From Carcharhinus amblyrhynchos (Eukaryota): 64,000 nt of DNA. The notes under the pieces are model-generated. The model searched no databases, was not told where the DNA came from, and worked only from the letters and a program-made list of their open reading frames with translations. The position numbers and the translations under genes are program-made. Numbering within the stretch: the stretch's first letter is position 1; each line of letters starts with the position of its first letter. This document shows, piece by piece, positions 18,474 through 55,455 of the stretch. The stretch is taken from positions 61,814,001 to 61,878,000 of the forward strand of contig OZ336879.1 in NCBI GenBank assembly GCA_965287045.1. Reading direction: 5' to 3'.

Positions 18474-18511
18474 GTATTGACCACAAAAACACAGATTTAG
18501 TGAAAAACTAC
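18474..18511 (+). CDS. PCSK-like exon, 38 bp, (G)[12 protein letters not shown], immediately after the catalytic Asp
   Basis: Polypyrimidine tract and tag acceptor at 18471-18473, donor gtaagt at 18512. Aligns with furin GIEKNHPDLAGNY and PC2 GIDYLHPDLASNY. Too short for the ORF track. Confidence 0.9.
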
Positions 18512-54500: not shown

Positions 54501-55455
54501 CCCGAAGCCATTTTTTAAGCAGCTGAAGATGGTTAAGCCTAGCACACTACCTTATGGAACTCCAGCAGTGATGTTTTGGGACTGAGATTATTTACCTCCA
54601 AGAACCACAACCATCTTCCTTTGTGTTAGGTATGATACCAACCTGTGGAGAGTTTTCCCCGTGTCTTCCATTGACTCTAGTTACACTTGGGTTCCTTGAT
54701 ATATTCTAAAGATGCCAAAAATGACTTTACAATCAATAATTATCTTTGACATAGCTATGTTTGTTTCATAGGAGGTTCAGGAACAAACTTTAATGTACAA
54801 TTGGTTTATGCTTGATTTGTTTTCCTTTCGTAATGCGACATGTTAAATACAGAAATTATGCACTAAAATAGATTCAGGGAAGGTGCTTCCCACTGTGTTG
54901 CCAACCTACAAATCCCCAACTTATTTTGCCTGCATAATCTGACATGAAAACTTCCAATATCACTTGAAATGAAGCATTTCCTGCCCAATTTCATGATGTT
55001 GTTTTAAACCAGAATTACGTCAGCATAAAACACAATATTGCTGTGTTCACATTGTCTGAATCCAATATATAAGCTATGATTCTTGTACTGTCTACAAAGG
55101 GTTAAGCATTGTTGTTACTTTACATCAGGATCAGAATAAGGTTATATTTCACACATAATAAGCAGCATTGCATCTATTCTCATAATTTGTATGGACCTGT
55201 GAATATAATATTTCATGTTTTGCTTTTATGAATACCTCTTATGAATTTTTATAGCTTCTTTGTGCTCAATATTGATGCAGTATGTGGGTGGGAACTAATT
55301 GGAGCTCCAACCTTGTTAATGGTACAATATGTGCAATTACTTTGTTTTCAACAGGTAACAACAGAACTTGACAATGAATGCACCAAAACCTTCAGAGGCA
55401 CTTCAAGCGCAGCTCCAATGGCAGCTGGTATAATTGCATTGGTCCTTCAGGCTAA
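18474..55455 (+). CDS. Partial multi-exon gene: divergent kexin-like proprotein convertase (PCSK, peptidase S8B), catalytic-domain exons join(18474..18511,38071..38153,39805..39893,46385..46557,49137..49364,55355..55455)
   Basis: Six AG/GT-bounded exons with matching phases (1-0, 0-2, 2-1, 1-0, 0-0, 0-2) splice into one open frame: [237 protein letters not shown](N). This is colinear with the furin/PC1/PC2 catalytic domain. No specific PCSK orthologue can be assigned by eye. Confidence 0.95.
21760..22085 (-). mobile_element. LINE (CR1/L2 group) 3' tail fragment
   Basis: Minus-strand gggaacaccaccatctgcaagttcccc...ggcaataaatactgg tail. The same tail occurs at 27515-28165 (-), 37390-37685 (+) and 48463-48975 (+). 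Confidence 0.7.
24040..27115 (+). mobile_element. Decayed CR1 RT fragments split by a nested RTE LINE
   Basis: [22 protein letters not shown] at ~24568-24635. The CR1 sequence resumes at ~26626 (LSDRKQK...[16 protein letters not shown]) and ends in a CR1 3' tail near 27110. Confidence 0.75.
24692..26625 (-). mobile_element. 5'-truncated RTE-clade (BovB-like) LINE
   Basis: Minus frames give [38 protein letters not shown]...[24 protein letters not shown], and a C-terminal zinc-finger-like [16 protein letters not shown]. Short-repeat tail (aagt) at ~24692. Confidence 0.88.
27515..28165 (-). mobile_element. LINE (CR1/L2 group) 3' RT fragment
   Basis: The minus ORF reads [14 protein letters not shown]...[14 protein letters not shown], followed by the shared 3' tail. 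Confidence 0.8.
28820..29122 (-). mobile_element. tRNA-derived shark SINE with LINE-shared tail
   Basis: ggagtcacatgtaggccagaccaggtaaggatggcagatttccttc core, as in the 45575 copy. Confidence 0.75.
29597..29910 (+). mobile_element. tRNA-derived shark SINE
   Basis: A-box-like gtggcaaagtgg, B-box ggttcaaatcc, core aaaacccatctggttcattaatgtcc, and aataaa tail. Confidence 0.8.
30172..30338 (+). mobile_element. HE1-like V-SINE, 3'-truncated
   Basis: ggtggcacagtggtttgcactgctgcctcacagcgtcagggacccaggttcgattc head. Confidence 0.85.
35165..35578 (-). mobile_element. CR1 3' end fragment
   Basis: ataggatttaggagcag tail and ctcctcatctctgtcttaaa, the reverse complement of the CR1 3' region. Confidence 0.65.
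35579..36545 (-). mobile_element. LINE (CR1/L2 group) RT fragment with a nested HE1-like SINE (~35755-36010, plus strand)
   Basis: The minus strand encodes [18 protein letters not shown] (frameshifted ...GPTIFSCxINDxP) and FADNCT. The SINE V-domain interrupts it. Confidence 0.75.
38071..38153 (+). CDS. PCSK-like exon, 83 bp, [28 protein letters not shown]
   Basis: Acceptor attttcacag and donor gtaaat. Aligns with furin DPGASFDVNDQDPDP...; its phase-2 end joins T+CAC of the next exon. Confidence 0.92.
39805..39893 (+). CDS. PCSK-like exon, 89 bp, catalytic His ([10 protein letters not shown]...AYNAKIGG)
   Basis: aag acceptor and gtaatt donor. HGTxCAGEV motif. 89 bp is the usual size of this exon in the convertases. 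Confidence 0.95.
42101..42424 (+). mobile_element. Full-length HE1-like V-SINE with CR1-like tail
   Basis: gtggcacagtggttagcactgctgcctcacag head, V-domain, and tail atgggctgaatggcctcc...ttctatga. Confidence 0.88.
43390..44230 (-). mobile_element. Old CR1 3' fragment
   Basis: ataagaacagg tail; ctttgtgacatcagcaaat on the plus strand reads FADVTK on the minus strand. Confidence 0.55.
44774..44846 (+). pseudogene. Degenerate tRNA-Ile(AAT)-like sequence
   Basis: agctcagatggttacagcatgatgc matches the recalled vertebrate tRNA-Ile AGCTCAGTTGGTTAGAGCGTGGTGC at 21/25 positions. The 3' half is colinear through gtgctggc, mostly with transitions. TTTT follows within 20 bp. Confidence 0.5.
44875..44956 (+). 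pseudogene. tRNA-Ser(TGA) pseudogene
   Basis: 82 nt, about 80% identical by eye to the recalled vertebrate tRNA-Ser. Anticodon TGA at 44908-44910, long variable arm ggggtctcccc, B-box gttcgaatcc. Stems are broken by CpG-type changes. Confidence 0.85.
44965..45388 (+). pseudogene. 5S rRNA pseudogene split by a SINE (5' part 44965-45007, 3' part 45307-45388)
   Basis: gcctatgactgcactaatctgaaaatgcccgaatttgtctgat corresponds to 5S nt 1-43. gatcttgggaagctaag...cctggttagtatttggatgggagacc...taggttttt covers box A, box C and the T-run terminator. Confidence 0.85.
45008..45305 (-). mobile_element. HE1-like V-SINE inserted into the 5S pseudogene
   Basis: Minus-strand head ggcacagtggtcagcactgctgcctcacag, V-domain and (ttctat) tail. 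gat is present at both junctions. Confidence 0.88.
45392..45460 (+). pseudogene. Degenerate tRNA-Lys(TTT)-like sequence
   Basis: gccttggtagctcagtctgaagagcatcacacttgtgatctggggttcaagttcaagtc is colinear with the recalled tRNA-Lys GCCCGGATAGCTCAGTCGGTAGAGCATCAGACTTTTAATCTGAGGGTCCAGGGTTCAAGTC. The 3' acceptor strand is not recognisable. Confidence 0.65.
45575..45918 (+). mobile_element. Full-length tRNA-derived shark SINE with A-rich tail
   Basis: A-box tggcctagtgg, B-box ggttcgaatcc, conserved core, and tail gaatgaataaaaaaa. Confidence 0.85.
45925..46125 (+). mobile_element. Possible decayed Myb/SANT-like ORF of a PIF/Harbinger transposon
   Basis: Frameshifted translation [17 protein letters not shown]...RLWDQIV...MQC resembles Harbinger accessory Myb-like proteins. 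Pattern recognition only. Confidence 0.35.
46385..46557 (+). CDS. PCSK-like exon, 173 bp, IRVLDG...[12 protein letters not shown]...GAKK
   Basis: Acceptor ttttctgtttaag and donor gtaaga. Matches furin VRMLDGEVTDAVEA...IYSASWGPEDDGKTVDGP. Confidence 0.95.
47421..47536. repeat. GC-rich 20-bp minisatellite (cactgccctctcccgcccgt), ~5.5 copies
   Basis: Tandem units are directly visible, and CpGs are retained. Confidence 0.9.
48463..48975 (+). mobile_element. LINE (CR1/L2 group) 3' fragment
   Basis: ADNCTMFCI...[18 protein letters not shown] RT C-terminus followed by the shared tail. Confidence 0.7.
49137..49364 (+). CDS. PCSK-like exon, 228 bp, oxyanion-hole Asn (WASGNGG)
   Basis: Acceptor tttgttttatag and donor TTG|gtgagt. 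Contains [23 protein letters not shown] and YSEAC motifs. Confidence 0.93.
49915..50040 (-). mobile_element. HE1-like V-SINE 5' half
   Basis: Minus-strand ggcacagtggttagcaccgctgcctcacagcgccagg head and V-domain. Confidence 0.85.
50677..52093 (+). mobile_element. Internally deleted Ty3/Gypsy LTR retrotransposon
   Basis: RNase H ([18 protein letters not shown]...KEALSII) and integrase Zn-binding fragment ([15 protein letters not shown]). LTR-like direct repeats start tgttatatat at 50677 and 51886 and share tttcacaggctgctatttta. Polypurine tract aaaaaggagaga lies immediately before 51886. Confidence 0.85.
52379..52672 (-). mobile_element. HE1-like V-SINE with the alternative (aataaataaacttt) tail
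   Basis: Same head and V-domain as other copies; tail shared with the 12405 and 55553 copies. Confidence 0.85.
52680..54026 (-). mobile_element. Second Gypsy relic (probable 5' LTR, PBS, protease and RT fragments)
   Basis: Minus frames give [15 protein letters not shown]...WCSGMVTVP and DDILIY (RT active site). A putative LTR at ~54026-53891 is followed by PBS-like tggtagca. Confidence 0.7.
54205..54710 (-). mobile_element. LINE (CR1/L2 group) RT fragment
   Basis: Minus-strand [23 protein letters not shown]...[10 protein letters not shown] and FADNFT motifs. Confidence 0.8.
55355..55455 (+). CDS. PCSK-like exon, 101 bp, catalytic Ser (GTSSAAP)
   Basis: Acceptor tttgttttcaacag and donor AA|gtaagt. 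VTTE...C...[19 protein letters not shown](N). 101 bp is the usual size of this exon. Confidence 0.95.

Follow-up and report, generated by a model that had tools for sequence, protein, structure and literature searches.

The window, as we call the whole stretch of DNA analysed here, comprises 64,000 nucleotides of the shark Carcharhinus amblyrhynchos (contig OZ336879.1; C10:61,814,001-61,878,000 of a 2.9-Gb genome assembly) and contains exons 6 to 11 of a gene encoding a kexin-like proprotein convertase of family S8B. The original prediction, made from the sequence of the window, had described six exons totalling 712 bp that splice into a stop-free reading, and these were confirmed on the + strand by their canonical AG/GT ends and by continuous translation (Table 1). 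The exon with the catalytic Asp lies outside the window, about 60 kb before its start (C10:61,753,903-61,754,011), and the 13 exons beyond the six were located by protein search and then fetched. The whole gene consists of 19 exons with canonical splice sites throughout, extends over 630 kb (approximately C10:61.480-62.111 Mb), and has an open frame of 769 aa. The intron that follows the catalytic DDG is common to this gene and PCSK2 of the same genome, and none was found at this place in PCSK1, PCSK4, PCSK5, PCSK7, or furin. Single exons gave no Pfam match at E 0.001, and an Rfam scan gave no match.

Exons 9 and 10 are covered, and intron 9 is bridged, by contigs from four sequencing runs, each from a separate study of related organisms; the kind of these runs was guessed or is not on record, and none is recorded as RNA. 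Contigs X1 and X17 join the two exons exactly at the predicted GT-AG boundaries, X2 and X3 bridge the intron with 44 more divergent letters, and two of these contigs are 6.3 kb long. These contigs are likely mRNAs, the alternative being a processed DNA copy. Synonymous changes make up 18 of the 21 distinct exon differences listed. Across sharks and a skate, identity is 81-93% in the catalytic part of type A, as we call this gene and its closest relatives in distinction from a second paralogue, type B; for the part encoded in the window it is 93% with a Mustelus protein and 91% with a Scyliorhinus protein. The exons outside the window are free of stops, and spliced contigs exist in relatives, in agreement with the intact gene that had been predicted. 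We are strongly confident that the gene is intact and belongs to an ancient lineage.

The encoded protein consists of an N-terminal hydrophobic segment, a prodomain, a linker of 52 residues, the S8B domain, a P domain with an RGD motif, and a tail. It has five N-glycosylation sequons and no membrane anchor, no 19-residue segment having a hydropathy above 1.6. The catalytic set is Asp207, His250, Ser429, and the oxyanion Asn351, all of which except the Asp lie in the window as claimed earlier, and the S1 pocket is acidic. The alignment also bore out that four disulfide cysteines and the equivalents of furin D306 and of furin D258, D301, and E331, residues with a role in Ca2+ dependence, are retained. 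The motifs listed in the original prediction are all in the sequence, but HGTKC is not a marker of the clade described below; HGTRC is the form seen in most of its type-B and invertebrate rows. In the shark relative P0004, Pfam detects the pro-, S8, and P domains (PF00082 and PF01483) and no Cys-rich repeat, and the same domain parts are seen in the frame of the gene itself. The AlphaFold model of P0004 (predicted local distance difference test, pLDDT, 85) matches furin with a template modelling (TM) score of 0.96 of the target and a root mean square deviation of about 2 A, and its best Foldseek matches are furin and then Kex2. By its domains, its catalytic triad and S1 residues, and its fold, the product is a kexin-like proprotein convertase. 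Three consecutive cysteines (window 46469-46477) precede the Trp that lines S1, two of which are kept in most chordate members, and a vicinal disulfide or redox control at this triplet is possible. In the linker (exons 3-4), a helical segment is kept in types A and B and in hagfish, and there is a further basic cluster in this species.

Table 1. Features of the window. Positions are those of the window, residue numbers those of the 769-aa frame, and furin residues are given in one-letter code.
Feature	Position	Strand	Description
Exon 6 of 19	18474..18511	+	38 bp; after phase-1 intron right behind the catalytic DDG
Exon 7	38071..38153	+	83 bp; loop preceding the catalytic His; Asn at furin D191 (S2) position
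Exon 8	39805..39893	+	89 bp; catalytic His250 (39806-39808), Cys267 (furin C211)
Exon 9	46385..46557	+	173 bp; Lys286 = furin E230 (46405-46407), Lys313 = furin E257 (46486-46488)
Exon 9, further residues			Glu292 (E236), Cys307-309, Asp314 (D258), Asp320 (D264)
Exon 10	49137..49364	+	228 bp; oxyanion Asn351 (49179-49181), Cys359-Cys389
Exon 10, furin equivalents			Asp357/Asp362/Tyr364/Glu387 = furin D301/D306/Y308/E331
Exon 11	55355..55455	+	101 bp; Cys421, Phe425 at furin H364, catalytic Ser429 (55403-55405)
Candidate duplicated non-coding element	13517..13595	+	Intron 5; single-copy; weak match at C7:80,032,210, in the matching paralogue interval
Interspersed repeat fragment	24544-24639		Intronic; presumably LINE (long interspersed nuclear element) reverse-transcriptase-like, by its motif
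Interspersed repeat family	30500-30800		Intronic; about 1,000 genome candidates
C-rich low-complexity tract	60571-61063		Intron 11; the long proline-/glycine-rich frames over it are artefacts

Phylogenetic placement was based on a FastTree of 291 rows, a quick LG+C20 tree of 59 rows, and a careful LG+G4 tree of 39 rows, for which 20 rows, mostly redundant, long, or partial, were dropped. In the FastTree and the IQ-TREE subsets, the gene and its relatives form one clade whose inner order is that of the species tree (Shimodaira-Hasegawa-like approximate likelihood ratio test, SH-aLRT, 97 in the quick tree), and in the careful tree the chordates are supported at 99/94 and the tunicate plus vertebrates at 100/96. 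Approximately unbiased (AU) tests (26 rows, LG+G4) rejected the grouping of the vertebrate members with PC2 (p = 3.4e-6), PC1 (p = 2.5e-48), PC7 (p = 3.5e-10), furin/PC4 (p = 7.4e-8), and PC5/6 (p = 1.1e-57), the five groupings set beforehand for judging the claim that the gene fits no mammalian PCSK; that claim is upheld. A genome search yielded seven matches from nine candidates, which were placed by trees as this gene and PCSK1, PCSK2, PCSK4, PCSK5, PCSK7, and furin. A clear PCSK4 lies on C26. As the reference for PCSK7 we used an unnamed lizard protein, which we take to be PCSK7 from its motifs.

The trees also agree with the earlier claim of an ancient extra convertase lineage related to the Hydra PC3-like endoprotease (P0135), which is the source of the automatic database name. 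The four motifs attributed to the Hydra protein were found in it; it shares CWGPKD, GNGGL, GLS-YY, and F-GTSS with the shark protein, has the pro-, S8, and P domains, likewise lacks a Cys-rich repeat, and is 56% identical to the part encoded in the window, but it has a P4 Arg at its own cleavage site and lacks both the 52-residue linker after the prodomain and the Cys triplet. Furin, PCSK4, PCSK5, and PCSK6 share with the shark protein the fold, the triad, the S1 and S4 acids, both catalytic disulfide pairs, and the RGD of the P domain, whereas the shark gene differs from them by E230K, E257K, D191N, H364F, and W328F, by the Cys-Cys-Cys before W254, by having no Cys-rich or transmembrane part, and by an own site without P4 Arg. 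PCSK1 and PCSK2 resemble it in their soluble architecture and helical C-terminal tail, and PCSK2 in the DDG intron; however, they are set apart by the AU tests, both are present as separate genes in this genome, and the oxyanion residue is Asn in the shark gene and Asp in PC2.

A kexin-like clade apart from PCSK1, PCSK2, PCSK7, and the furin-like groups was named PCSKX by Tao et al. (2019), who drew on Nematostella, spiralians, sea urchin, and multi-copy amphioxus and stated that vertebrates and ecdysozoans have lost it; human, chicken, and Xenopus were the only vertebrates in their tree (bioRxiv 10.1101/802215). The clade found here includes Nematostella, Crassostrea gigas, Lingula, sea urchin, and several amphioxus copies, and because it has the taxon make-up of the preprint's group, the lineage is most likely PCSKX. 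The group of the preprint is restricted to invertebrates, whereas the present clade also contains hagfish, two jawed-fish paralogues, a tunicate, Priapulus, and, weakly, two arthropods. Contrary to the stated ecdysozoan loss, Priapulus falls inside the clade and, weakly, so do a millipede and a lobster protein (P0184, P0210, and P0279 for the three taxa together). Our search of the open-access literature, with subscription papers outside its coverage, found PCSKX only in this preprint, found no description of a vertebrate member, and found no paper joining Pou3, convertase, synteny, and amphioxus; the available text of PMC7067429 contains nothing on such a gene. In a cichlid survey, a PCSK-like gene without FU domains was called possibly incomplete or an assembly error (PMC4992253), and this gene may be a type B member. 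The proteins are already present in databases under automatic names that are wrong, such as PC3-like, PCSK4-like, kpc-1, and NEC1/2-like. The second paralogue, the POU3F linkage described below, and the existing name PCSKX all go beyond the original prediction.

The original prediction had seen the lineage as one kept in cartilaginous fish, and this range proved too narrow. Relatives were found among jawed fishes in sharks, rays, chimaera, coelacanth, lungfish, bichir, sturgeon, gar, bowfin, and many teleosts, and elsewhere in hagfish, Styela, amphioxus, Ptychodera, echinoderms, Lingula, molluscs, Owenia, Priapulus, and cnidarians, so that a range restricted to sharks is excluded. Type A occurs in sharks, rays, chimaera, coelacanth, lungfish, and bowfin, and type B (100/100) in rays, a bullhead shark, lungfish, and ray-finned fishes, so that both types are present in lungfish and in bowfin. 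Since a clade of shark A and B was rejected (AU p = 8.3e-5), the A/B split is older than jawed vertebrates. Hagfish groups loosely with A (89/88). No tetrapod member was found in 72 rows (from 137 candidates), among the best 120 of 2882 matches, or among the best 120 of 2529; both best-120 lists reached down into invertebrates, and the one bird row among the 72 is PCSK4 in the 291-row tree. The predicted absence from mammals agrees with the matches listed, among which no mammalian member of the lineage appears, and we infer that the lineage was lost in tetrapods. Zebrafish, carp, and catfish were likewise without a member among the matches listed, although type B is present in characiforms and milkfish. 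If some otophysans have lost the gene, this could be the reason that it was overlooked.

Both copies are located upstream of a class III POU gene. At about 59 kb from its last exon, A is followed by a single-exon gene of this class in the same orientation (C10:62.170 Mb), and another lies about 240 kb past the last exon found of B, also on the same strand (C7:80.751 Mb). From their end sequences we take these to be POU3F3 and POU3F2, respectively. MMS22L is directly 5' of B, an NHE gene is about 1.1 Mb 5' of A, and a gene model of Nibea fuses type B to a POU homeodomain. An NHE gene is also found upstream of the POU3F4-like gene (C4:77.33-77.38 Mb), in the same orientation as on C10, which extends the paralogon. 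Both copies thus show the linkage to a developmental transcription factor that characterises a genomic regulatory block, and A and B are very likely an ohnologue pair from whole-genome duplication beside POU3F. In the present genome the B copy, which extends over more than 1.1 Mb (C7:79,386,049-80,514,262), is losing exons: exons 5-8, 10, and 14 gave no match in 1 Mb free of N, the WGP of exon 9 has lost its W and P, and exon 15 is interrupted by a stop, while exons 1 and 4 are still recognisable.

The genes that flank the corresponding human deserts are, by their Ensembl identifiers, presumably TMEM182 and MMS22L. The human upstream intergenic lengths are 2,037,846 bp for POU3F3, 1,551,417 bp for POU3F2, 2,209,704 bp for POU3F4, and 791,405 bp for POU3F1 (PMC7530604, Table S3), and from the POU3F and MMS22L neighbours together with these lengths, the fish genes therefore sit at the places of human deserts. 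The formation of deserts through erosion of bystander exons has been described (Touceda-Suarez et al. 2020, PMC7530604); in the available part of that source, the row for the POU3 block names UTP11 only, and the 'pcsk' entries (best 2 of 3) are both in the ohnologue list. The present case is like these regulatory blocks in having a bystander with large introns beside a developmental transcription factor, a duplication in early vertebrates, and deserts after loss, and it differs in that the bystander family is missing from human altogether, two copies exist in jawed fishes, and the loss was late. No PCSKX exon remnants were found in the 60 kb upstream of the POU3F4-like gene or the 50 kb upstream of the POU3F1-like gene, stretches that are small compared with the deserts, and genome-wide protein searches gave none either. 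It is reasonably likely that the human deserts at POU3F3 and POU3F2 derive from decayed PCSKX genes.

With regard to non-coding sequence, an element of 58-60 bp occurs exactly twice in the genome, once in A and once in B and both times within intron 13; the two agree at 83% over 60 bp (E 9e-8). A further candidate element is present in intron 11 of both copies. The intron-5 element of Table 1 is a weak candidate for a POU3F enhancer. A 150-bp match between C10:62,037,362 and C7:80,217,209 falls in neighbouring, not identical, introns. Just upstream of the POU3F3-like and POU3F4-like genes two short elements are shared in matching order and orientation (C10:62,166,788-62,168,293 and C4:76,545,231-76,546,549). 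In human, a paralogous element has been reported to lie upstream of POU3F3 as well as POU3F2, and it was negative in an enhancer assay (PMC3595034). The regulatory-block step appears plausible but is shown only in part.

The specificity of the enzyme can be considered by comparison with furin, in which S1 is formed by D258/D306, S2 by D154/D191, S4 by E236/D264, S5 by E257, S6 by E230/D233, and S1' by R193/R197/H364, and in which acidic upstream residues clash with E230 and E257 (PMC11859198, PMC3545927). In the shark enzyme the S1 and S4 residues, D154, and D233 are kept, D191 is replaced by Asn, E230 and E257 by Lys, and R193, R197, and H364 by Gly, Lys, and Phe, respectively. Of the 19 type-A rows, 14 have Lys or Arg at 230 and 16 have it at 257, compared with none of the 14 canonical rows (one of which has a gap at 257), and Phe364 is found in 60 of the 61 clade rows with data, compared with His in all 14 canonical rows. 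The predicted self-cleavage string, H-E-V-E-K-R109, aligns to the end of the furin prodomain, and all 12 type-A sites of sharks and rays shown have an aliphatic P4 and acidic P3 and P5 (P0017 was dropped by the pattern). By comparison, 135 of the 149 rows with a parsable site have Arg at P4; the other 142 of the 291 rows have no such site. Across the rows, the charge of the cleft was anticorrelated with that of the site (rho -0.78, 149 rows). Because the S1 and S4 acids are kept, P1 would be Arg, and because of the lysines at E230 and E257 and the HEVEKR site, acid-flanked dibasic substrates would be likely. On these residues, we somewhat favour a soluble, Ca2+-dependent dibasic convertase that would tolerate a non-basic P4 and prefer acidic flanks. 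More speculatively, activation might be linked to an acidic compartment through the His at P6, which is conserved.

By homology, the protein would enter the endoplasmic reticulum by its N-terminal hydrophobic segment, fold with the help of the prodomain, and cleave itself in a Ca2+-dependent manner at H-E-V-E-K-R109 and then at R-I-T-K-R80. The S5 and S6 lysines are predicted to suit acidic P3 and P5 residues, so that sites like E-x-E-K-R, which furin disfavours, would be preferred, and Phe at the position of furin H364 is predicted to alter the primed side. The 630 kb of introns may carry long-range enhancers for the neighbouring POU3F3, which would explain why the locus was kept while the exons eroded in tetrapods and left a desert.

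Taken together, the most probable reading is that the locus carries an intact 19-exon kexin-type gene, most likely of the PCSKX lineage and likely one of two copies from whole-genome duplication upstream of POU3F, whose product is predicted to be a soluble enzyme of the secretory pathway and to cut after Lys-Arg at sites with acidic flanks, not at polybasic ones. Several results weigh against parts of this interpretation. In the careful tree the deep PCSKX node has moderate support (88/88 without and 80/55 with two arthropod rows), the identity to invertebrate members (50-56%) is close to that to the canonical paralogues (45-55%), and the label PCSKX rests on taxon make-up. Phe364 is not exclusive to the clade, being present in 12 other rows, and the charge correlation is not significant over nine phylogenetically independent pairs (median p 0.5). 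The absence from tetrapods is based on lists of best matches. In the repeat-masked comparison of A and B, 6 of the 26 strong matches (E ≤ 1e-4) were on the same strand and in the same interval, with 3.2 expected and 2 on the other strand, which is no clear enrichment, and two of the four candidates searched genome-wide, at window 30560 and C10:62,148,518, were repeats. The lack of significance over independent pairs would also fit an enzyme of furin- or PC1-like habit, for which lineage and synteny hold, cleavage is at the usual R-X-K/R-R or KR sites, and Lys at 230 and at 257 is of minor importance. Such an enzyme would be expected from the retention of S1 (D258, D306), S4 (E236, D264, Y308), and D233 and from the P4 Arg at the own site of type B and most invertebrate members, and the leech pcskx, which is broadly expressed, was judged furin/PC7-like (bioRxiv 10.1101/802215). 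We nevertheless regard it as unlikely, if worth keeping in mind, since the basic residues at 230 and 257 are frequent in type A and absent from canonical rows, the sharks and rays shown uniformly combine a P4 other than Arg with acidic residues at P3 and P5, and modelling indicates that E230 and E257 of furin disfavour acidic upstream residues.

It is improbable that the protease is nearly dispensable and that the gene, as a bystander scaffold for POU3F enhancers, is on its way out. The exon losses and the stop of the B copy, the lack of a tetrapod member among the matches listed, and the described route of bystander exon erosion (PMC7530604) are in line with this possibility, but the identity among type A sequences, the excess of synonymous differences, the intact frame, and the spliced contigs are not, and enhancers do not require intact exons. 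Slightly less probable again is a vertebrate clade that is real and distinct from the preprint's PCSKX, to which invertebrate sequences are attached by long branches. The moderate deep-node support and the flat identities would agree with this, as would the orphan cnidarian group near PCSK2 that is also mentioned in the preprint (bioRxiv 10.1101/802215); however, the chordate and tunicate-vertebrate nodes are well supported, the branching follows the species tree, Phe364 marks nearly every clade row and no canonical one, and the 39-row tree has no very long branches. A divergent paralogue of mammalian type such as PCSK6 can practically be dismissed: PCSK6 is not among the seven matches from nine candidates of the genome search, which may be a limit of that search, but the AU tests reject PC5/6 and every other paralogue, there is no Cys-rich region, the DDG intron is not found in PCSK5, and the neighbour is POU3F. 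Returning to the PCSKX gene beside POU3F, we lean slightly towards a joint picture in which an eighth kexin-like lineage was duplicated together with Pou3, the POU3F3 and POU3F2 deserts, and perhaps those of POU3F1 and POU3F4, are eroded gene bodies whose introns hold Brn enhancers, and the shark has one charge-reversed working copy for acid-flanked sites that no mammalian convertase favours and one eroding copy.

With vertebrate members in hand, the stated vertebrate loss of PCSKX is overturned, and an unstudied convertase is added to fishes, for instance medaka, salmonids, cichlids, and pufferfish. With its lysines at S5 and S6, such an enzyme would lend itself to testing the electrostatic model of furin specificity, and it could account for cleavage sites that fall outside the mammalian rules; acid-flanked sites of prohormones and granins would be the first place to seek its substrates. 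Furthermore, two well-known neural gene deserts would gain a named and datable ancestor, and the shark exons could serve as landmarks for the mapping of enhancers.

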